Virus record (IMG/VR): IMGVR_UViG_3300010362_000080
Span: 1 to 29,216 of that record
Strand: one strand, 5' to 3'
Length of the DNA stretch: 29,216 nucleotides
Source: a virus
Lineage: Duplodnaviria > Caudoviricetes
Of this stretch, positions 1-28,341 are shown piece after piece; position 1 is the stretch's first letter, and every line of letters begins with the position of its first letter. The notes under the pieces are model-generated. The model saw only the letters and a list, made by a program, of their open reading frames with translations. It searched no databases and was not told the DNA's origin. The translations under genes and the position numbers were made by a program.

Positions 1-138
1 GACGCTGACGCGGAATTGTGGATTGCGCTTGATGACGCCGTTCGCGAATACCGCGCCGCACGGCCACTCGAACAGCGCATTGACGCCGCGCTGGAGGGGC
101 TGACGGATGAGGCGAAGTTGGCGAAAAACTGCCGGTAA
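1..138 (+). CDS. 3' end of a hypothetical protein (partial, runs off window start)
   Basis: Frame 1 is open from base 1 (DADAELWIALDDAVREYRAARPLEQRIDAALEG...) to TAA at 136-138. Confidence 0.55.
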   Translation, partial: DADAELWIALDDAVREYRAARPLEQRIDAALEGLTDEAKLAKNCR

Positions 139-179
139 GCGCCAGAACAGAACGCAAAATAACAACACAAAGGAGATAT

Positions 180-704
180 ATGAAAACACTTTTCTCGTTG
201 CTGCTCACCCTAATGATTGCTTTTGCCGCGAACTCGCAGTCGCTGAAGAAACCCGGCGCGGCGAAGATCGTTAGGCAGCGGATAACCGCGGAGTCGGTGA
301 ATCCGGCGGCGTTTGCCGGTGACGAATACAAATACGTGGACGACGAAGCCGCTGTCAATGTAACTCGTGAGGCCGAAGGCAAAAACCTCCGCGTCACTGT
401 CACGGTCGTATTCAGACTTGCGACCTCCGAACGCGGACAGGCGCGCCAGGAAGTCCTGATGCTTGGCGGCTACGAGGGAGACACATGGCAAAAAGTCACA
501 GCTGAATCTCACAGCATTCTCCTGGGCGGGGCGAAACTGACGACGATCGAAGAATACAGAGTCTATTACTACGCCGGCGTCGCAACTCTCGTGGCTTCAA
601 TGGACGCGAAGACTAGTCTTTTAGGAAGGCAGGCATTGAATAGGGGGGTACGATTCGTGAAGCTTGCTTATGAGCAGGGCGAGAAGATCAAGATTGAGAA
701 GTAA
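180..704 (+). CDS. Hypothetical exported protein with N-terminal signal peptide
   Basis: AGGAG SD before ATG. MKTLFSLLLTLMIAFAANS looks like a Sec signal. TAATG overlap with the next gene. Confidence 0.75.
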   Translation: MKTLFSLLLTLMIAFAANSQSLKKPGAAKIVRQRITAESVNPAAFAGDEYKYVDDEAAVNVTREAEGKNLRVTVTVVFRLATSERGQARQEVLMLGGYEGDTWQKVTAESHSILLGGAKLTTIEEYRVYYYAGVATLVASMDAKTSLLGRQALNRGVRFVKLAYEQGEKIKIEK

Positions 705-928
705 TGACCGATTCCCAACAGCAAATCGAATTTCAACTGATCCGCTGTCCGACCTGCGGCGCCGGGCTCTTCTATTTCTCTGGGCCGCCGAGCTTTCGGA
801 TTCGCATAAAATGCCGCCGCTGCACGTCTCGCGAAAAGACCCCGACTTTCGTGATTATCCAAGTTTCTCTTGAATCTGCGGTGATTTCTGCCGTAGACTC
901 AAAGCCGGAAAATTCTGCGTGCGCTTGA
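704..928 (+). CDS. com: Mu Com-family zinc-finger protein
   Basis: IRCPTCGAGLF...IRIKCRRC matches the Com pattern (IRCxxC..LF...I.IxCxRC) in a 74-aa protein. Confidence 0.75.
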   Translation: MTDSQQQIEFQLIRCPTCGAGLFYFSGPPSFRIRIKCRRCTSREKTPTFVIIQVSLESAVISAVDSKPENSACA

Positions 929-1001
929 ATTACGCGCCTAAACCATCGCGCCCCGTGCGCCGTCGGTCCACTTCGGATCGTGCGGCGCTTTTTCTTTTAT
1001 G
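916..1001 (+). promoter_or_regulatory. Conserved cis-regulatory element, copy 1: YGCGCY repeats, bulged hairpin, U-tract, ATG
   Basis: TGCGTGCGCT (916-925), CGCGCC (933, 947), TGCGCC (956), stem 957-969/975-988 with one bulge, then TTTTTCTTTT and ATG 999. Closely matches 4235-4318. Confidence 0.8.
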
Positions 1002-1301
1002 GATCAATGGGTAAAAATCGCCGGCCAGTTCGGAATACCAGTCGCGCTCTTAATGCTCCTGGCTTACTTCATTCTTCGTCACGTCTGGCCATTCGTCACC
1101 AGACAGATCCAGGACGCCCAAACTCAGCGCGCGGCAGAGATTGAGAAATTTGATAACACAATCCGCAAACGCGACGGCCTTATGGTCCAGCAATGGCAGG
1201 AACATCTGAAAGCGCTCGACGCAATAACCGGCGAGATTCGGGGATTGCGCGAGGATATACAGACAAATTATCCGCAGCGAACAACACGAAGGAGAAAATG
1301 A
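999..1301 (+). CDS. Holin-like protein (one N-terminal TM helix plus coiled coil)
   Basis: Hydrophobic FGIPVALLMLLAYFIL, heptad-like body and basic C-terminus (RTTRRRK). First gene of a membrane-protein cluster. Confidence 0.55.
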   Translation: MDQWVKIAGQFGIPVALLMLLAYFILRHVWPFVTRQIQDAQTQRAAEIEKFDNTIRKRDGLMVQQWQEHLKALDAITGEIRGLREDIQTNYPQRTTRRRK

Positions 1302-1621
1302 TTCGATTGTTATACGGCACATTGATCCTTATGGTCGCGCTCGACGCGATCGCCTCCACCCTGGCGGCGTGGTATATGTTTCGAATGCGCCAGCGATTCG
1401 GCCATTACCTGGCGCTCGCTTTCACCGGCGTCGCCGCCGAAGCCACGATTGCAATTATAACCACAGGATTCTCGCCGACCCCACAGCGAATCATTGTATG
1501 GGTCGTCGTCATCCGAATCCTGACCCGGCTTTTCAAAACAATCACAATGGTCATGTTGCCATTGTTCCTGCTCGGTTATATCAATGGCGACAAACCGGAG
1601 GTGATGAAAGATGCTGTCTGA
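1298..1621 (+). CDS. Three-TM membrane protein (holin/antiholin candidate)
   Basis: Start reassigned to ATG 1298 (AGGAG SD, ATGA overlap with the upstream stop). About three hydrophobic segments. Confidence 0.6.
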   Translation: MIRLLYGTLILMVALDAIASTLAAWYMFRMRQRFGHYLALAFTGVAAEATIAIITTGFSPTPQRIIVWVVVIRILTRLFKTITMVMLPLFLLGYINGDKPEVMKDAV

Positions 1622-2051
1622 TTTTCTCACTCACGTTAAAGATTACGTCCACAATAACCGCGCGCGGCTCGCTAAATTCGCATTTATCCTCGCCCTGATC
1701 ATCGGCGCCGCGCTCCTGATCTACGGCATTGTTGGCGAAATCCAAAAAGCCAAATACGATCGGCGCGTCAATCAACTTGACGAACAATTCAAAACCGCCG
1801 AGGCCAAAGCTCAGGCCGCAGCGCAAGCCGCCGACGCATACAAAACCGCGCTCGATCTGAAGCAATCGGAGATCCAGTTTCTGACGGCGAAAGCCGAAGC
1901 CGCCGATAAGAGAATGGGCCAAACCCGCACGGTGTACGTGCAAGCGAAGGAAAACTATGAACAGATTCGCGCTACCCCTATCCCTGCTACTCCTGTTTCC
2001 TGCGCAGACCTATGCCGGCAGTTGGCAGAGCTCGGGTACGAGTGCAAGTGA
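1611..2051 (+). CDS. Inner-membrane spanin-like (Rz-like) protein
   Basis: N-terminal TM (FAFILALIIGAALLIYGIV), long Ala/Lys/Gln coiled coil, Pro hinge and C-terminal cysteines. Overlapped out of frame by the next gene. Confidence 0.55.
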   Translation: MLSDFLTHVKDYVHNNRARLAKFAFILALIIGAALLIYGIVGEIQKAKYDRRVNQLDEQFKTAEAKAQAAAQAADAYKTALDLKQSEIQFLTAKAEAADKRMGQTRTVYVQAKENYEQIRATPIPATPVSCADLCRQLAELGYECK

Positions 2052-2403
2052 GTGCGAGGGCGCCGCAAAAGCATGCAGCGCCGCAGCGAAAGAATTGAAA
2101 GCGGCGCGAGAGTTAATTATCGGTCTCCAGGCGCATATCGACGCCGCCGAGGACCGGATAAAGATCGCATATCGTGAGATCGAAACTCTCAAGTCCGCCG
2201 GCGAACTGCAATCCGCGCGCGCGAAGGAACTTGAGAACGTAATCGCGGCCGAGCGAGAGCAGGTGGTCTTATCGTTGAAGAGGATTGAGCTTCAACAGCG
2301 ACGGATCGTCCAACTTGAAAAGCAACTCGGCCGCGCTCGTAAATTCGGCTTGATCGCCGGGGTGGCGGCGGGCGTTGCTATCCTCATCGGCGCAAGTAGA
2401 TAG
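1957..2403 (+). CDS. Spanin-partner-like protein: signal peptide, coiled coil, C-terminal TM
   Basis: Starts 95 nt inside the Rz-like gene in another frame. Signal peptide without lipobox, two Cys, coiled coil, C-terminal FGLIAGVAAGVAILIG. Confidence 0.5.
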   Translation: MNRFALPLSLLLLFPAQTYAGSWQSSGTSASECEGAAKACSAAAKELKAARELIIGLQAHIDAAEDRIKIAYREIETLKSAGELQSARAKELENVIAAEREQVVLSLKRIELQQRRIVQLEKQLGRARKFGLIAGVAAGVAILIGASR

Positions 2404-2525
2404 AACTGACAGGACGGCGTTGGCTACGTGAGAGGTGGTGCGCCGTCGTCAGCGGGGCGGGGAGTCTGATCGGGGCACACGGCTCGCTCGCCCAATTCGT
2501 ATTTGTTTTAAAACGTAGGAAAAAC

Positions 2526-2846
2526 GTGGGTGTAAAGGGCCAAAGTGGCGGTAAAAAAGGTAGATCGGGGCGCAAGTCGAAGTCTGAAGAGATGGGGCTC
2601 GTTGCGCTCCTCAATAAGTGCTGGACGCTCGACCAGCGCGAGGCATGCATTAGCAAACTTGCAACGCTTGCAGAGGAAGGTGATAAGGACGCGATCAAGT
2701 TACTAATGGCCTATACCTTCGGCAAGCCGAGGGAGAGTGTTGATCTCAATCACCATACCGAGGCGTTGCCCACTCTCAACGTGGTAATCAATGGACATGC
2801 AACTACACCCGCGCCAGGGCCTGGCGTTCCTGAGCCAAGCGAATGA
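2526..2846 (+). CDS. terS: Terminase small subunit (putative)
   Basis: GTG start after AGGA. Basic Gly-rich N-terminus (GVKGQSGGKKGRSGRK) and AIKLLMAYTFGKP motif. Overlaps terL. Confidence 0.7.
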   Translation: MGVKGQSGGKKGRSGRKSKSEEMGLVALLNKCWTLDQREACISKLATLAEEGDKDAIKLLMAYTFGKPRESVDLNHHTEALPTLNVVINGHATTPAPGPGVPEPSE

Positions 2847-4176
2847 GATTCTGTACGGCGGCGCTGCCGGCGGGGGCAAGTCTCACCTGATGCGCGTCGC
2901 GGCGATCGCATGGTGCGTCGCTATTCCGAATTTGCAAATCTATCTTTTCCGCCGCACGCTTCCCGATCTCCTCAAAAACCATCTGACCGGGCCGACCGGC
3001 TTTCCGGTCCTTCTCGCCGAATGGGTCAACAGCGGCTATTGCTCGATCAACTATTCTCGCAATCGTATCGAGTTTAAGAACGGCGCGAAGATTCACCTTT
3101 GCCACTGCGACAAGGAATCAGACGTTTACAAATATCACGGCGCGGAAATCCATGTGCTGATGATGGATGAATTGACGCACTTCTCAGAGACAATGTACAG
3201 GTTTCTACGCGGTCGCCTGCGCCTAGGCGGGTTGAAAATCCCGGATCAGTACAAGGGTTTATTTCCGCGAATCCTATGCGCCAGCAATCCCGGCTCCATT
3301 GGCCATAACTGGGTGAAGATGACCTTTGTTGACTGGGCGTCGCCGATGGAGATCAAGGGGGCCCCGAGGAGCGAAGGCGGGATGGCCCGCCAATACATTC
3401 CGGCTCGGCTCTATGACAATCCTACCCTAATTGAGACTGATCCCGATTACGCCTATCGCCTGGAAGGCCTCGGCAGCCCCGAACTGGTTCGGGCAATGAT
3501 GGACGGTGATTGGGACATTGTCGCGGGCGGGATGCTAGACGATTTGTGGCGCCGTGATCTGCACGCAATTGACCCCTTCGAAATCCCGTCGAGCTGGCGC
3601 ATTGACCGATCGTTCGACTGGGGATCGTCAAAGCCATTCGCGGTCCTATGGTGGGCTGAATCCGACGGCACGCAGGCCCCGAACGGCCGCCATTATCCGC
3701 CGGGTACGGTCTTTCTAATCAACGAATGGTATGGATGGAACGGCCGGGCGAATAACGGCTTGAAGATGCTCGCCGTCGAGATCGCGCGCGGGATTGTCGA
3801 GCGCGAATCCCTATGGCCATATCGCGTCGAGCCGGGCGCGGCGGATAGTTCGATATTCGACGCGGAAAACGGCGTCTGCATTGCTGACGATATGGCAGCA
3901 GTGGGCGTTCACTGGCTGCCAGCGGACAAATCTCCAGGGAGCCGCGTCACGGGCTGGGAGCGGCTTCGCAAGATGTTGAAAGCGGGATTGCAGCGCCCAA
4001 TGGAAGATGCGGGCATTTTCATCTTTAACCACTGCGCCCAGTGGATTCGCACTGTCCCGGTCTTACCTCGCGACGAAAAGAAGCCGGACGACGTGGACAC
4101 GGACGCCGAGGACCACGCCGGCGACGCGACGCGCTACAGGATTATGACCCCGGTCGCAGAGTGGAAAACGGCTTGA
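2791..4176 (+). CDS. terL: Terminase large subunit
   Basis: Walker A YGGAAGGGKS, Walker B VLMMDE, ASNPG coupling motif, nuclease SFDWG and C-terminal DHAGDATRY. Start may be ATG 2797. Confidence 0.96.
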   Translation: MDMQLHPRQGLAFLSQANEILYGGAAGGGKSHLMRVAAIAWCVAIPNLQIYLFRRTLPDLLKNHLTGPTGFPVLLAEWVNSGYCSINYSRNRIEFKNGAKIHLCHCDKESDVYKYHGAEIHVLMMDELTHFSETMYRFLRGRLRLGGLKIPDQYKGLFPRILCASNPGSIGHNWVKMTFVDWASPMEIKGAPRSEGGMARQYIPARLYDNPTLIETDPDYAYRLEGLGSPELVRAMMDGDWDIVAGGMLDDLWRRDLHAIDPFEIPSSWRIDRSFDWGSSKPFAVLWWAESDGTQAPNGRHYPPGTVFLINEWYGWNGRANNGLKMLAVEIARGIVERESLWPYRVEPGAADSSIFDAENGVCIADDMAAVGVHWLPADKSPGSRVTGWERLRKMLKAGLQRPMEDAGIFIFNHCAQWIRTVPVLPRDEKKPDDVDTDAEDHAGDATRYRIMTPVAEWKTA

Positions 4177-4234
4177 GTTTGCGATTCTGCTTGACTTAAC
4201 CAAAACGTATATCGCAAACTCGCGCTGACAATAT

Positions 4235-4318
4235 TGCGTGCGCTATTTCGCGCCTAACTGTTCGCGCCATCGTGCGCCGCCGATCTGAAAAGATCGCGCG
4301 GCGCTTTTTGTTTTTATG
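4235..4318 (+). promoter_or_regulatory. Conserved cis-regulatory element, copy 2, upstream of portal
   Basis: TGCGTGCGCT (4235-4244), CGCGCC (4249, 4263), TGCGCC (4273), stem 4274-4286/4291-4304 with GAAA loop and one bulge, then TTTTTGTTTTT and ATG 4316. Confidence 0.8.
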
Positions 4319-5671
4319 AGCCAAGCGATCGCCAGATACAGATACCAAAAGCCGGGGCTGCTTCAGCGAATTTATCAGGCGCTGAAGTTGCGCTTTACCG
4401 GCTTTGGTGGATCGTCGGGCCAATCCTGGGGCGGTCTCAATTGGGCGTCCGGCATATTCACTAATTCCCGGATCAACTACGCCGCGGAAGCTGGGGAACT
4501 GGAAAAGTCGTCACTTGTAATGGCGGCCGTCAACTGGCTGGGCCGCGTACTCCCAGAGGCGCCGCTGCAGGTCGTGCGCGCAGACGCTCGGGGGAAAGAA
4601 CAGCCGATCCCAAATCACCCAGCCATTGACCTGCTTAATCGTCCTAACCCGTTCTTTTCCGGCGCGACCCTCTTAAAAGCCTTCGCGCTATCGTGGATCA
4701 CGTCGGGCAACGCCTATTTCCTGAAAGCGCGCAACGAATTCGGTCAAGTCGTGCAGCTTTGGCACGTCCCACCGTGGATGATCGCGCCGCGCTGGCCCGA
4801 GGATGGCAGCGAATTTATTTCCTATTACGAATACCAGACGGACGGCGCCATTGTTCGTATCAGGGTCGAGGACGTGATTCATTTCAGAGACGGCGCCGAT
4901 CCGGTGAATATGGGGCGGACAGGGCTTTCGCCTGTCGCCTCAGTCCTTCGTGAGGTCTGCGCCGATAACGAGGTCGCGGTCTATCAATTTCTGCTTCTGA
5001 AACAAGGCGGCGTCCCGCCCGTCGCCCTGGCGCTCAAAGACGGCCAAGTCTCGGTCAGTTTCGATCCCACTGCCGTCAAGCAAGACTATGTCAGATCAAC
5101 GACCGGCGACCAGCGCGGCAAAGTGTTCGTCTCTAATCGCGCTGTCGAGATCACTAAGCTCGGCTTCAATCCCTCCGAGTTGGACATGAAAGTCTTGCGC
5201 CACCTTCCCGAGTCGCGCTTTGCCAGCGTGATCGGTATAGCCAAAGAGACTTTGGGTTTTGGCGCCGCCGACGAGAACAGTACTTACAACAACGTGGAGC
5301 AAGCCGACGAACGCTCAATCTGTACTTACGCAAAGCCCTTGTGGGACTTCATCGGCGACGAATTAACCCACCAATTGCGCGACGACGTCGGCCTGAGGCG
5401 CAATCACCGGATCGCCTTCGACCTGCGCAATATCGCAGCCTTACAGGAAGATCAAGACAAATTGCATATGCGCGCTAATGCCGACCTGGCCAGCGGCGGA
5501 ATCACTGTGAACGAATACCGCGAAATGATCGGCCTGGAGGGTCGCCCCGACGGCGAGGTCTATTTGCGGTCGGCCGCCGTTCAGGCTGTCACGCCGGAAG
5601 TGCAGGCTGCGGAGATTGATCAGGCAATCAATCCGCCGGACCCGGCGCAGGATAACGGAATGATCAATTAA
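4316..5671 (+). CDS. Portal protein (HK97 family)
   Basis: HPAIDLLNRPNP, GNAY, DVIHFR, GLSPV and GITVNEYREMIGL motifs. Follows terL. Confidence 0.95.
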   Translation: MSQAIARYRYQKPGLLQRIYQALKLRFTGFGGSSGQSWGGLNWASGIFTNSRINYAAEAGELEKSSLVMAAVNWLGRVLPEAPLQVVRADARGKEQPIPNHPAIDLLNRPNPFFSGATLLKAFALSWITSGNAYFLKARNEFGQVVQLWHVPPWMIAPRWPEDGSEFISYYEYQTDGAIVRIRVEDVIHFRDGADPVNMGRTGLSPVASVLREVCADNEVAVYQFLLLKQGGVPPVALALKDGQVSVSFDPTAVKQDYVRSTTGDQRGKVFVSNRAVEITKLGFNPSELDMKVLRHLPESRFASVIGIAKETLGFGAADENSTYNNVEQADERSICTYAKPLWDFIGDELTHQLRDDVGLRRNHRIAFDLRNIAALQEDQDKLHMRANADLASGGITVNEYREMIGLEGRPDGEVYLRSAAVQAVTPEVQAAEIDQAINPPDPAQDNGMIN

Positions 5672-5679
5672 GAGGCTTT

Positions 5680-6648
5680 ATGAACGAAGCGTTATTTTAT
5701 TTCGGTGACACTCTGAGAGCCCTCGACGATAAGGGCCGCGTCGGCGGCTATTCCGTTCGTTTTACTGATAGTGATCATAGGGATTTATACGGGGACTATT
5801 TCACCAAAGATACCTACCTCGGCGCGCACGAAGGGAACGGCGTTGATGTGCTGTTTCACCACGGATTACCACTTTATACCACTCGCCGGATGAGCGACGA
5901 ACAGAAGAAGGCTTTAGAGGCCTTCCGCAATCATATTTTCAGCAATACGGCAAAGAGTAAAAAAGACGACGTGGGTTTGTTCACTGAAGTCGTACTCGAC
6001 ATGGCCGACGAGTACGAAAAGGCTGTTTACGGCTTGGTGAAAGCCGGCAAGTTGGGGTGGTCGTCGGGTTCGACCTGGCACATGGTCAAGCGAACCGACG
6101 ACGGGCAGATTACACGCTGGCCGATTATCGAAATCTCGCTGACGCCCCAGCCCGCCGAGAAGTTAAATCGCGTCGCCACACTCAAAACCATTGAATCTTT
6201 GAAATTCGTTCCGCTCGGTGACGACGCGGACGACGATGACGAACAACCGATGTCTGAGGCAGAAAAACTGGTGTCCAGTTTCAAGGCCCTCGACATCGAC
6301 ACGCATTCCCGATTGGCGGTGTCCGCCGTGAAGGATCTAGCAGCCCGCTTTCGCAGCAAATACGAAGCGCGGCTAAAGGATAAACGCGCTCTTTCGGAGG
6401 CTTATCGTCAGAACGTGGCTTCAGTTCTTGAGCAATGGAAAGCGGCGTCCGCTGACCTGCAAACACTGCTCACTGAAGCGACGGCCACGACGAACGACGC
6501 CGAAAAGCGCGCCACGGAGAGCGAATACTTCAGATTGAAGTATAGGCACGCCGTCAAAAGGGGAAATAATGCTCAAAACCTTAGAACAACTGTTGAAAGT
6601 GGGGACGATGTTGGAAATCGCCGCCACGATCAAGAACAACACAGATAG
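5680..6648 (+). CDS. Prohead maturation protease (HK97-like) with C-terminal extension
   Basis: VGGY, DLYGDYF, VLFHHG, GWSSG and EISLTPQPA motifs. Lies between portal and capsid. Confidence 0.85.
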   Translation: MNEALFYFGDTLRALDDKGRVGGYSVRFTDSDHRDLYGDYFTKDTYLGAHEGNGVDVLFHHGLPLYTTRRMSDEQKKALEAFRNHIFSNTAKSKKDDVGLFTEVVLDMADEYEKAVYGLVKAGKLGWSSGSTWHMVKRTDDGQITRWPIIEISLTPQPAEKLNRVATLKTIESLKFVPLGDDADDDDEQPMSEAEKLVSSFKALDIDTHSRLAVSAVKDLAARFRSKYEARLKDKRALSEAYRQNVASVLEQWKAASADLQTLLTEATATTNDAEKRATESEYFRLKYRHAVKRGNNAQNLRTTVESGDDVGNRRHDQEQHR

Positions 6649-8038
6649 GCTTGCGGTACTGTTCGACGCCGCTGGAGACAGAGCAGACAAGGCCAACACT
6701 CAAGCCGAACTGGACGAGATCAAGGCGATTGACGCCGACCAGGAATTGCTGGAAGCGCGATATGCCGAACTGAAGAAGGTAGAGGAAGCGCGCGCCAAGA
6801 ACGAAGAACGTGTGAAGGCGTTCGCCACGCCGGTCACCCGCCCGCCGTTCCCGAACGGGAAGGAAGAAAAGAAAGCCAGCAAAGCCATCGTCTATTCGCC
6901 GATGGGCAATCTGCGGCATATCAACGTTTACGGCAATCGCCATCAGGACGAGGAATTGGCTTATCGCTTCTTCCAATGGTGGTCGGCGACCAATCTTCCG
7001 AGCCATTCGGCTCTGCGCGCGAAGGCTGAAACCTTCTGCCAGGACAACGGAATCCCGACCGTCAAGGCGCTGAACGAGGGGATCAACGAACAGGGCGGCG
7101 CGCTCGTTCCGCCTGAGTTCGACAACATGTTGATTCGGTTGCTGGAGACCTTCGGCGTCTTTAGGCGCTACACCCGAATGAATCAGATGGCGGGCGACAT
7201 CAAGATGGTCCCGCGCAGGACCGGGGGCGTAACAGCGGCATGGGTCGGCGAAGGCGCCTCGATCGCCGAATCGACGCCCAATTATGACAACGTGCAGTTG
7301 GTTGCAAAGAAGCTGGCTGCGCGCGTGGTGATGTCATCTGAGATCGCGGAAGATTCCGCCATCAGCATTGCCGATCAGTTGGCTTTCGAGATTGGGACTG
7401 CGTTCGCGCTGGCTGAAGATCAGGCCGGCTTCCTGGGTGACGGCTCTCCGACTTACGGCGGGATTACCGGCATTACACAGAAACTGCTCGGCCTGAGCGG
7501 AACAATCGCCAATATCGCCGGCCTTGTGGTCGCTTTTAAGGACTCAGACGGAACCGCCGCGAACACATTTGATGAGTTCGGCCTGAAGAGCTTCAACGCC
7601 ACGGTGGCGTTGCTCCCGCAGTACGCCGATACGGCGCAAACCGCCTGGTATTGCCATCGCTCGTTTTACTTCGGGACGATGCAGAGGATCGAACTCGCCG
7701 CCGGCGGCAACACTATCCGCGAAGTGGCGACAGGCGACCGGGCCGCTCGGCCTCTCTTCCTCGGCTATCCGGTGAACTTCACGCAGGTCATGCCGCGAAC
7801 GGACGCGAACTCGCAGATTGCCGCGATTCTGGGCGACCTCACGATGGCCACAATGATGGGCGACCGCCGCGCGCGCACGTTGTTTACTGATCCGTTCTCC
7901 CTGTCAGCGAATGACCAAATTTCTGTGAGGGGCACGGAAAGAGTAGATATCGTAGTCCACGACTACGGCAACGCCAGCGCCACAGCGGCATTGCGCCAGC
8001 CCGGTTCGGTCGTGGCTCTGATCTCTGCGGCGTCGTAA
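6569..8038 (+). CDS. Major capsid protein (HK97 fold) with N-terminal coiled-coil scaffold domain
   Basis: GGALVPPEF, AAWVGEG, KKLAA...SSEIAEDS, EDQAGFLGDG and LFLGYPV motifs. Alternative start at ATG 6608. Confidence 0.95.
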   Translation: MLKTLEQLLKVGTMLEIAATIKNNTDRLAVLFDAAGDRADKANTQAELDEIKAIDADQELLEARYAELKKVEEARAKNEERVKAFATPVTRPPFPNGKEEKKASKAIVYSPMGNLRHINVYGNRHQDEELAYRFFQWWSATNLPSHSALRAKAETFCQDNGIPTVKALNEGINEQGGALVPPEFDNMLIRLLETFGVFRRYTRMNQMAGDIKMVPRRTGGVTAAWVGEGASIAESTPNYDNVQLVAKKLAARVVMSSEIAEDSAISIADQLAFEIGTAFALAEDQAGFLGDGSPTYGGITGITQKLLGLSGTIANIAGLVVAFKDSDGTAANTFDEFGLKSFNATVALLPQYADTAQTAWYCHRSFYFGTMQRIELAAGGNTIREVATGDRAARPLFLGYPVNFTQVMPRTDANSQIAAILGDLTMATMMGDRRARTLFTDPFSLSANDQISVRGTERVDIVVHDYGNASATAALRQPGSVVALISAAS

Positions 8039-8105: not shown

Positions 8106-8534
8106 ATGATCGAACTTCAAACAGTTAAATTCGTCTCGGCGCTTCCGCCGATCTCCGTCGCCGGCGGCGCGAATGCCACGATGACCGTGGTTGACACCAA
8201 GGGTTTCCGACAGGTCGCGCTCGTGATTCAGGCCGGGCTGCTCGGCGCGAACGGCGTCGCCACGATTCAATGGCAGGAAAGCCACGAAGCGAACGGCGCC
8301 AACGCGGTGAATATCACGGGCGCGAACCACACGGCATTGGTTGACGCCGACGACAACAAAACCATCTGCACGTATCTCCAGCTTCTGGGGAATCGCAGGC
8401 GGTATTTGACGGCGATCATCACCGTCGGCTCGACGAACGCCTGTCTGCTCTCCGCGCTGGCGATCCTGAGCCGCGCTGAGGAAGCCCCGAACACGGCGGC
8501 TGAGCGCGGTTTGCTCGAACAGAAATTCGTATGA
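8106..8534 (+). CDS. Capsid-associated (decoration/cement-like) protein
   Basis: AGGAG SD. Beta-rich 142 aa with VDTKGF and RRYL motifs, directly after the capsid gene. Confidence 0.55.
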   Translation: MIELQTVKFVSALPPISVAGGANATMTVVDTKGFRQVALVIQAGLLGANGVATIQWQESHEANGANAVNITGANHTALVDADDNKTICTYLQLLGNRRRYLTAIITVGSTNACLLSALAILSRAEEAPNTAAERGLLEQKFV

Positions 8535-9223
8535 AAACGCTCTATACGCTCAACGTTGATGGATATTCACCGCGCATTTGCGAGGTGACGTATCCGCTGT
8601 TGAGACGTTATGCGGAGAAGATCGGCGCCGAGTTTTTCGTAATCACCGAGCGGAAGTCCCCAGAGCTTCCGCCGGTGATCGAAAAACTCCAAATCTACGA
8701 TATCGCGCGCGAGCGCGGCGACGATTGGATCGTGTTCTTTGATTCGGACGCGCTTGTTCATCCGGACATGCCCGATGTGACGGAGATATGCCCCTTTGAT
8801 TCGGTCATGCATAACGCCACGGATTACGCGTCGTGTCGATTCACGTATGACGACTACTTTCGCCGCGACGGGCGGCATATCGGCTCGGGTAATTGGTTCA
8901 CGGTCGCGTCGCGCTGGTGTCTGGACCTCTGGCATCCGCTGGAGGATATGACGTTTGATGAGGCCGTCGCGCGCATCAAGCCGACGGCGCTGGAAAGAAA
9001 CGCCGCCATCAAGCCGGATCACCTGATTGACGACTTCATTCTGTCCCGCAATATCGCGCGCTATGGATTGAAGGCGATTTCATTTCGCAAGATCGTGGCC
9101 GAACTCGGACAACTCGACACTTCCTATCTCTGGCATCACTACTTGCTAACTGAGGATCAGAAGCTGGCCGGAATGAAAAAGGTGTTGGAGTTATGGACGG
9201 GCGGCGCGATCAGGTACGAATGA
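8531..9223 (+). CDS. Glycosyltransferase-like protein (GT-A, DxD motif)
   Basis: YAEKIGAEF, EKLQIY and DWIVFFDSDALV resemble nucleotide-diphospho-sugar transferases. ATGA-coupled to the upstream gene. Confidence 0.65.
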   Translation: MKTLYTLNVDGYSPRICEVTYPLLRRYAEKIGAEFFVITERKSPELPPVIEKLQIYDIARERGDDWIVFFDSDALVHPDMPDVTEICPFDSVMHNATDYASCRFTYDDYFRRDGRHIGSGNWFTVASRWCLDLWHPLEDMTFDEAVARIKPTALERNAAIKPDHLIDDFILSRNIARYGLKAISFRKIVAELGQLDTSYLWHHYLLTEDQKLAGMKKVLELWTGGAIRYE

Positions 9224-9405
9224 TGGCAACCAAGCGGATAAAACTAATCAAGGCCTGGAATATGTTCGCGCCTGGCGCCGAGGTGGAATTTCAGACGTCG
9301 GTCGCTGATCTGCTGATTCAGAGAGGCCGCGCGGAAGAGGTTAAGCCGGTGCAGGCGCCTGCGCCGGTGATTAAGCCGAAGAAGTCGAAGAGAAAAGGTA
9401 AATGA
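9220..9405 (+). CDS. Small basic head-region protein
   Basis: ATG 9220 overlaps the upstream stop. KRIKLIKAW...ADLLIQRGRAEEV plus a Lys-rich tail. Confidence 0.6.
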   Translation: MMATKRIKLIKAWNMFAPGAEVEFQTSVADLLIQRGRAEEVKPVQAPAPVIKPKKSKRKGK

Positions 9406-10049
9406 CGCCGAAATTCACAACTGATTGGCACACGCACGCGATTCCGGTATGGCGGAAGGTACTCGAACCGTATAGAGGCCAACCCGACGTGCGCGTGTTG
9501 GAGATCGGGTGCTTTGAGGGACGGTCAACAGTGTGGCTGCTGGAGAATGTATTGACGCATGCCGATGCTCATATTGATTGCGTAGACACCTTCGAGGGAA
9601 GCGTTGAGCATAGGGGGATGGGCTTAAACCTCGGCGATCTGCATGTCCAATTCTTGATGAATATTGAGCCATATAGGGGAAAGGTTTCCGTATATCGAGG
9701 GCCATCTCAAGAAATCTTGCGAGATCGCTGGCTCACCTTGGGTCAATACGACTTCGTCTACATAGACGGCTCGCACGCGTCGGCCGACGTCCTAGAAGAC
9801 GCCGTGTTGAGCTTCCGGCTTCTGAAGGTTGGGGGCTTGATGATCTTCGACGATTACGCGTGGGACGGTGGCGGCCCTACCGAGTTCGACAACCCGAGGC
9901 GCGGGATTGACGCTTTTTATTACGCCTACGGAAATCAATTGCAGCGCGCCCACGTATCTTATCAGGCGATATTCCGCCGTGTGGCCGAACCTAGCGAACC
10001 GGAACCGGAATCGCCCGGATTCGCAGAGATGATTCAGAAACTTATTTAA
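9402..10049 (+). CDS. Class I SAM-dependent methyltransferase (Methyltransf_24-like)
   Basis: VLEIGCFEGRS (motif I), CVDTF, YDFVYIDGSH and LKVGGLMIFDDY. Confidence 0.88.
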   Translation: MTPKFTTDWHTHAIPVWRKVLEPYRGQPDVRVLEIGCFEGRSTVWLLENVLTHADAHIDCVDTFEGSVEHRGMGLNLGDLHVQFLMNIEPYRGKVSVYRGPSQEILRDRWLTLGQYDFVYIDGSHASADVLEDAVLSFRLLKVGGLMIFDDYAWDGGGPTEFDNPRRGIDAFYYAYGNQLQRAHVSYQAIFRRVAEPSEPEPESPGFAEMIQKLI

Positions 10050-28234: not shown

Positions 28235-28263
28235 AATATATCCGAAAATAATTCTACGCGCAA
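28235..28263 (-). promoter_or_regulatory. Promoter for a probably leaderless HTH transcript
   Basis: TTGCGC-N17-TATATT on the minus strand. The -10 box ends 6 nt before the ATG and there is no SD. Confidence 0.55.
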
Positions 28264-28276
28264 GGATATAATTATC

Positions 28277-28304
28277 TTGACAACTCTGCGCGCTTGCGTA
28301 TAAT
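28277..28304 (+). promoter_or_regulatory. Consensus sigma70 promoter
   Basis: TTGACA (28277-82), 16-nt spacer, TATAAT (28299-304). Confidence 0.8.
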
Positions 28305-28341
28305 TATCCCTGTCAGTTGATAACACGAAAGGGGCAGGGAA

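Follow-up and report, generated by a model that had tools for sequence, protein, structure and literature searches.

What does a Com-like zinc-finger gene do beside the late genes of a tailed phage? Com-like genes with no assigned job are found far beyond phage Mu. The locus considered here lies in a virus record of 29,216 bases, analysed at its full length and referred to as the window, which carries terminase, portal, capsid, tape measure and tail genes on the + strand. In it, an open reading frame (ORF) for a small zinc-ribbon protein is overlapped at its 3' end by one copy of an RNA leader element of about 85 nucleotides (nt), and a second copy precedes the portal gene. A preliminary description had proposed that the Com-like protein acts on an RNA switch at these late-gene leaders by binding linear YGCGCY repeats. 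Conservation, linkage and covariation in relatives support such a switch, but repeats 3 and 4 can fold into a small hairpin, and this, instead of the linear repeats, is the likely RNA target. With a probability of roughly 0.55, we favour a reading in which both leaders would terminate transcription by default and the Com-like protein would capture this small hairpin co-transcriptionally, leading to read-through at both sites. Sequence and comparison establish the two copies, their promoter-like hexamers and covarying stem, the way in which the two hairpins overlap and, in close relatives, the association of gene with element.

The two copies, at 916-1001 and 4235-4318 as first described, have a mean column identity of 79% (159 columns) and no counterpart elsewhere in the window: their local alignment scores 61, whereas the next best matches on either strand reach 24 and 27 and none of 100 shuffled queries exceeds 34, a separate hairpin detector found no third copy on either strand, and TGCGTGCGC, GCGCCTAA and GCGGCGCTTTT each occur exactly 2 times on the + strand. 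The positions given earlier for the repeats, the bulged stems of 13 base pairs (bp), the U-tracts and the adjoining ATGs hold. Repeats 1 and 2 (+ strand) span 919-937 in copy 1, with GCGC at 921-924 and 934-937, where pairing is possible between these two repeats or between repeat 1 and repeat 4, and 4238-4253 in copy 2, with GCGC at 4240-4243 and 4250-4253. Predicted intrinsic terminators (+ strand) follow at 957-998 (stem 957-988, U-tract 989-998) and at 4274-4315 (stem 4274-4304 with a GAAA loop, U-tract 4305-4315), the bulge being on the 3' side of the stem in both. ATGs at 999 and 4316 come directly after the U-tracts, with the AUG 11-12 nt past the stem and outside it in both copies. Neither has a Shine-Dalgarno (SD) sequence (-1.7 kcal/mol), in agreement with the preliminary description, but they are not alone in this: among 33 window starts, 22 are at -4 or better, and 7 others besides these two are weaker than -3.

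The three stem changes that had been reported to preserve pairing between the two copies are all correct, but only C969-G975 / U4286-A4291 is two-sided; because the other two are one-sided G.U swaps, the two copies alone show little covariation. Seven further elements of the same type were found, ahead of the portal gene in L002, L003 and L007, and at the 3' end of the zinc-finger gene in L176, L178/L296, L293 and L289 (a short form), where they precede a small membrane-protein gene. Across eight aligned close copies (the short form, which lacks repeats 2-3, was left out), 97.1% of the cells of the terminator stem are paired and 5 of 13 pairs change on both sides, a value matched in none of 500 shuffles; since this control can be beaten by related sequences, we take the stem covariation, which the earlier comparison had anticipated, as support and not as proof. 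The repeats are kept while spacers and loops drift, and the U-tracts are kept as well. In the short form, at L289/L290:6173-6273, only repeat 1 could pair with the terminator base. L001 and 9 of the 14 loci of one search were judged to be chance matches.

Missed in the preliminary description were the competition of the repeat 3/4 hairpin with the terminator base and a promoter-like site before each copy. Predicted promoter 1 (870-899, + strand), inside the 3' end of the zinc-finger gene, consists of a -35 TTGAAT (870-875), an 18-nt spacer and a -10 TAGACT (894-899); predicted promoter 2 (4191-4220, + strand), which is intergenic, has TTGACT (4191-4196) and CAAACT (4215-4220), again 18 nt apart. 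The pattern TTGA.. / 18-nt spacer / nAnACT lies upstream of 9/9 close elements, both within the gene and in non-coding DNA, at 50-57 nt from the terminator base (38 nt in the short form); derived after the fact, it occurs twice on the + strand of the window, at 870 and 4191, once per copy. The hexamers of promoter 1 recur with unrelated spacers in L176, L296, L293 and L289, and the promoter 2 type recurs in L002, L003 and L007. As the spacers are unrelated among the five gene-linked promoters, there is no conserved DNA element of the lambda Q or AlpA type between or around -35 and -10. Because of the promoter-like site upstream of each, the copies are best read as the 5' leaders of two separate transcripts, which would start at the predicted promoters.

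Repeats 3 and 4 together can form a 4-bp hairpin, GCGC-C(N)2-3GW-GCGC, that occupies the four terminator base pairs nearest the U-tract. In copy 1 (948-960, + strand; GCGC-CCCGU-GCGC), nucleotides 957-960 are common to hairpin and terminator, and the hairpin of copy 2 (4264-4277, + strand; GCGC-CAUCGU-GCGC) is one base away from a hairpin in the com gene of phage B3. Both are predicted antiterminators in the format of a Com site. Com recognises CC(N)2-3GAG in a hairpin loop adjoining an inhibitory stem, and GA in the loop is called crucial for its binding, according to the accessible part of PMC6483171; the Mu site folds as AUGC-CUGCGA-GCAU. Com-format hairpins are present in 8 of 9 close elements, and in 7 of these they sit at the terminator base, where hairpin and terminator are mutually exclusive by sequence; a loop GA (GAG) occurs in 4/9. 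As background, the window holds 9 Com-format sites of at least 4 pairs on both strands together, the GCGC form being found on the + strand only at 948 and 4264. Among eight com loci that we fetched, including those of Mu and B3, five have a 4-bp Com-format hairpin 29-35 nt before the next start; a sixth has a site of 3 pairs at a greater distance, and the remaining two lack one. In B3, where the site was placed by analogy, the hairpin reads GCGC-CAUCGA-GCGC and is identical to that of L176. A further com-like ORF, unannotated, follows the terminase region of Moraxella phage Mcat3 (L299:1501-1661), where a Com-format hairpin stands 32 nt ahead of a hypothetical gene that itself precedes the coat gene.

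The putative partner of these hairpins is encoded at 704-928 (+ strand), by an ORF whose start overlaps the stop of the upstream one. Its 74-residue product is a predicted C4 zinc ribbon (C15, C18, C37, C40), distantly related to Mu Com, and the four cysteines are invariant in 11/11 sequences. In a comparison by hhalign, a profile of close homologues matches Mu Com across the zinc ribbon (probability 95.6, pairwise E 1.1e-8), and it gives 22.6 bits for Mu Com, 14.5 for B3 Com and 2.0 for P2 Ogr (P 0.009); among ten homologues, one carries the source annotation 'phage FluMu protein Com', and 5 of 11 match Pfam Com (PF10122) weakly (best E 0.016). Because the protein itself scores 11.4 bits against the Pfam cut-off of 22.9, and because the same profile yields 17.7 bits for ribosomal eS27, the protein is Com-like by sequence and below the family cut-off, not a filed member, and the earlier designation as a Com-like zinc finger stands in this narrower sense. 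Pfam gave no match to a CAT or PRD domain in it. Atlas rows named Com came up with template-modelling (TM) scores of 0.54-0.69, under the service's bar; a fold search with a structure model of low confidence (predicted local distance difference test, pLDDT, 65.9) gave no match at E 0.001 or Z 5, and a word-based protein search returned the query itself only.

A more distant version of the element was met in phages with related portals: their terminator shares its ends with that of the window and follows an RGAUGAGCGC motif, either in the corresponding location or downstream of the portal. A scan for this distant loop plus the terminator 3' end, stricter than an earlier pattern whose 120 loci were mostly chance, gave 71 loci, of which 49 fold as terminators; an alternative stem of at least 3 bp closing the 10-nt loop, which was not in the search pattern, is present in 41/49 terminator-like loci and in 0/22 others. 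Eight of 40 distinct cores had no closing pair and were dropped, and the 32 kept form on average 4.53 pairs with their own partner against 1.77 with swapped ones (0/10,000 swaps as high). In 29 aligned elements (the 32 minus three near-duplicates), columns 18-22 belong to the small helix as well as to the terminator, and covariation is seen in the two alike (0.911 versus 0.169 and 0.542 versus 0.111), the distant loop and the outer five terminator pairs carrying no weight as they were fixed by the search pattern. A promoter-like site lies upstream of 21/32 distant elements, compared with 5/153 control windows, and an AUG within 16 nt of the stem was seen in 8/32 only; in 24/32 it is further away, often with a free SD sequence. 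Because both exclusive helices covary, promoter-like sites lie upstream and the AUG is mostly remote, the distant family is, on the evidence of these alignments, a two-state RNA switch predicted to act on termination. Scanned with a model of the distant elements, the window yields its two copies as the top matches (E 0.0045 and 0.031), over the terminator part only: the window lineage has the terminator in common with the distant family and a different upstream half. The distant 10-nt-loop register was rejected for the window lineage, as the upstream arm is fixed there while the terminator arm changes. At L305:1501-1565, a terminator with the same GCGCC...GGCGC ends lies before a small membrane gene, with neither the conserved loop nor an adjacent zinc-finger gene.

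Several general searches returned nothing over the window element. Both hairpins escaped the built-in terminator scan, presumably owing to the bulge, and both promoter-like sites escaped the promoter scan; the pair of copies was absent from the output of the ungapped repeat finder, no RNA holder came up for 600-4600 (a result that says nothing about expression), annotated phages gave no match to copy 1, and Rfam 15 gave none at gathering score over the element in window positions 1-6000 and 14 distant loci. The RNA motif had no match in six supplement files of PMC10690425, and may be listed as an unannotated candidate elsewhere in the supplements of PMC5737381 or PMC10690425, which were accessible in part. 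GP20-b was rejected as the family of the element, its sub-threshold match adjoining the element and not lying on it. At L229:2428-2486 (- strand), a full-length sub-threshold GP20-b match (32.4 bits, cut-off 36.2) is located just 3' of a distant-type terminator and before a scaffold-like gene, which would place two regulatory RNAs one after the other.

Gene and element are tightly linked in near relatives and loosely in distant ones. Eight loci were obtained by protein alignment, and all 6 with full-length matches (4 distinct) have the promoter and terminator at the 3' end of the gene; the other 2, which match over the N-terminal half only, have no terminator and precede a DNA-methyltransferase-like gene (by motif). 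Linkage to com in relatives, as the preliminary description had envisaged it, was hence found at 6/6 full-length homologue loci, but no Com-like gene was detected in the near-complete genomes G016 and G019. In seven of ten further homologues, the protein ends in the residues for which the -10 region and repeat 1 code here; taken from protein sequences only, this hints indirectly at linkage. Among 41 portal-relative loci, 11 carry the distant type, all beside a C4 ORF (several are near-duplicates), and 27 showed no element by pattern or eye in the stretch examined, which is short in many of them. PF10122 matched 0/32 distant records. In related phages, the cassette of gene, promoter and switch occupies three sites, namely the gap between terminase and portal (L009, L049, L204), the gap between portal and a protease-like gene (L011, L027-L043) and the position before holin-like genes (the window, L176, L293, L191). 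G019 (L277), a provirus of 95% completeness with no recognisable Com-like gene, has two distant-type elements on the - strand, at 1051 and 8102, before a holin-like and a scaffold-like gene.

Taken together, the favoured sequence of events would begin at a predicted host-type promoter with a short leader RNA, which by default likely ends where the hairpin and its U-tract lie. Encoded beside copy 1 by the final gene of the upstream operon, the Com-like protein would then likely bind the overlapping small hairpin in the nascent RNA and keep the terminator base open, allowing read-through into lysis-like and terminase genes from copy 1 and, in trans, into portal and capsid genes from copy 2. Transcription from the two promoters, termination, the binding of zinc and RNA, and the action in trans on copy 2 are steps that we infer. 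In this scheme, the small hairpin would act much as in the BglG, LicT and SacY antiterminators, where a weak, protein-stabilised ribonucleic antiterminator (RAT) hairpin overlaps the 5' arm of a leader terminator. The likeness lies in the exclusion of the leader terminator by a small hairpin, evident by sequence in 7/9 close elements and covarying in 29 distant ones; the protein here, however, is a 74-residue zinc ribbon with no CAT or PRD domain, and the genes are phage late genes and not sugar operons. In phage lambda, the Q gene directly precedes the promoter pR', the short leader terminator tR', and the lysis and then packaging genes, and Q binds promoter DNA, loads on the polymerase and causes processive antitermination. 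The layout here runs parallel (regulator gene, promoter, leader terminator, lysis then packaging), but the effector would be RNA-binding, in the manner of BglG and RAT. P2 Ogr and P4 Delta are likewise small four-cysteine late regulators of phages, with a different cysteine spacing and a score of 2.0 bits; to our knowledge, Ogr promoters have no -35, whereas those found here do.

AlpA, too, binds promoter DNA and loads on the polymerase for processive antitermination, according to the accessible text of PMC9371919; in contrast to Q and AlpA, the conserved information at our locus lies in the transcribed leader, and each gene block has its own. With Mu Com, the window protein has in common a small C4 zinc ribbon of the pattern IRC..C..LF...I.I.C.RC, an RNA site within its own gene or at that gene's 3' end, and a 4-bp hairpin that has the format of a C(N)2-3G-purine-type loop site and overlaps a larger inhibitory hairpin (PMC6483171, PMC3299994 and PMC6240691, in the parts accessible). 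Unlike in the Com/mom system, the targets would be lysis-like, portal and head genes in place of an enzyme that modifies DNA, the large hairpin runs into a U-tract while the start codon stays outside it, the promoter lies inside the 3' end of the gene, a second site is found 3.3 kb away, the loops end in GU, and the protein falls below the Pfam cut-off. As far as PMC3299994 and PMC6240691 were accessible, com homologues are described there only before methyltransferases, as in B3, FluMu and others, and before bacteriocins of the llpA type, and the latter paper states that the role of com-like genes beyond Mu remains to be explored. In the literature searched, with thin coverage of subscription papers, we found no paper on Com-type antitermination of late genes and no antitermination job for the Com family.

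Whether the hairpin acts as a terminator or by blocking the start, both of which had been considered in the preliminary description, is the most direct point of dispute. Termination is favoured on the ground that no element has its AUG within the stem and that the AUG is remote in 3/9 close and 24/32 distant elements, often with a free SD sequence, as noted. A Com-like protein that binds the same small hairpin and acts on translation, with the long stem 11 nt before an SD-less AUG blocking ribosome loading until binding frees the start, is in our judgement unlikely, though it would fit the 6/9 close and 8/32 distant elements in which such an AUG comes right after the U-tract, and translational activation is the only activity shown for Com in the accessible part of PMC6483171. 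The retained U-tracts do not suit it, and the full stem, about 10-11 kcal/mol more stable than the open form, is more easily reconciled with capture during transcription than with later melting. A real RNA switch served by another effector, be it a phage or host factor or folding kinetics alone, with the zinc-finger gene a mere neighbour hosting the promoter, appears somewhat less probable still. The genomes without a detectable Com-like gene (G016, G019 with its two element copies, G023 and G007) and a nested fold that is predicted to form without protein speak for it; however, gene and element occur together at three genome positions in relatives, the hairpin matches those of com loci, and a partner of its own that has diverged further may serve the distant type.

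Action on DNA or RNA polymerase, in the way of lambda Q, AlpA or P2 Ogr, would make the GCGC repeats DNA sites and the hairpin an ordinary leader terminator. It draws on the position of the gene, which in close relatives follows replication-type genes (DUF927, DUF3102, helicase) and lies right before promoter, terminator and lysis-like genes, as Q does, on the weak -10 of copy 2, and on the ability of zinc ribbons to bind DNA. We nevertheless regard it as improbable: the spacer between -35 and -10 is not conserved, the repeat spacing varies, the similarity to Ogr amounts to 2.0 bits only, and the covarying exclusive helices of the distant homologues point to a switch at the RNA level. Slightly more improbable again is that no regulation takes place, with the hairpins as plain terminators or attenuators that fix the ratio between gene blocks and the repeats as left-overs of a duplication. 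That, in the close lineage, covariation backs nothing but the terminator, and that L289 has no repeats 2-3, would agree with this; but a promoter 50-57 nt before a constitutive terminator would yield short RNA only, and the single-stranded repeats are kept even as spacers and loops vary.

Protein-dependent read-through through the small hairpin, our preferred reading, has several observations against it. Both window loops end in GU (GUG) and not GA, and the small hairpin is invariant in the close copies, leaving it with no covariation support. As GCGC is its own complement, folding predictions also give a nested form (repeat 1 with 4, repeat 2 with 3), which dominates at nascent lengths; this form and the small hairpin alike sequester repeat 4. 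L289/L290 have no small hairpin, yet gene, promoter and terminator are retained, and the distant elements have a different antiterminator with its 10-nt loop. Strong zinc-finger matches were obtained in 3/25 non-seed distant records only, most records being fragments, and no Com-like gene was found in G016 (100% complete), G019 (95%), G023 (88%) and G007 (78%). To these add the Pfam and eS27 scores given above, the -10 of copy 2, which is missing its first T, and the SD-less AUG right at the U-tract of 6/9 close elements, which suits translational control too.

Tentatively, and at somewhat less than even odds, the argument can be widened: Com-type zinc ribbons might be a widespread, undescribed class of RNA-binding antiterminators of phage late genes, encoded in a portable cassette of gene, embedded promoter, switch hairpin and terminator. 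Such a cassette would stand in for control of the Q type, shift among lysis, portal and protease genes, serve additional copies in trans and evolve together with its RNA site, which would have a GU loop here, GA in relatives and a 10-nt loop in distant phages. If so, the translational control of mom in Mu would be a special case. The favoured reading of this locus, if right, would add a mechanism of late control beside Q antitermination, Ogr/C activators and phage sigma factors, as well as a very small protein-gated terminator with natural specificity variants. For reporter work, the locus supplies a concrete protein, a site of 13-14 nt and a terminator.

The record is a 29-kb piece that starts 700 nt before the zinc-finger gene, and a genome scan yielded portal matches only, at 33-37% identity. 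The first block that would be gated (999-2403, + strand) contains small membrane or coiled-coil ORFs at 999-1301, 1298-1621, 1611-2051 and 1957-2403, beginning directly after the zinc-finger ORF with a small membrane protein and not with mom or a methyltransferase; none of 39 ORFs scanned in the window is mom-like, in line with the earlier account. Its label as a lysis operon finds some backing in putative holin-like and spanin-like ORFs, but their family matches are weak (best phrog_4297, E 0.006) and no endolysin was recognised. Putative small (2526-2846) and large (2791-4176) terminase genes occupy 2526-4176 (+ strand), between the two leader copies, and the second block would start at 4316-8038 (+ strand) with the portal (4316-5671), a putative prohead protease that has no family match (5680-6648) and the major capsid protein. 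The intergenic stretch 2404-2525, before the putative small terminase, has two strong GC-rich hairpins unrelated to the leader element. Among the head-tail genes, 8531-10049 holds a 230-residue ORF with a DSD motif (glycosyltransferase-like by eye, with no family match) and a Methyltransf_24 gene, which together possibly serve virion modification. Near the window end, at 28250-28308, a consensus promoter (TTGACA 28277-28282, 16-nt spacer, TATAAT 28299-28304) precedes small ORFs and sits inside an imperfect direct and inverted repeat that looks operator-like.

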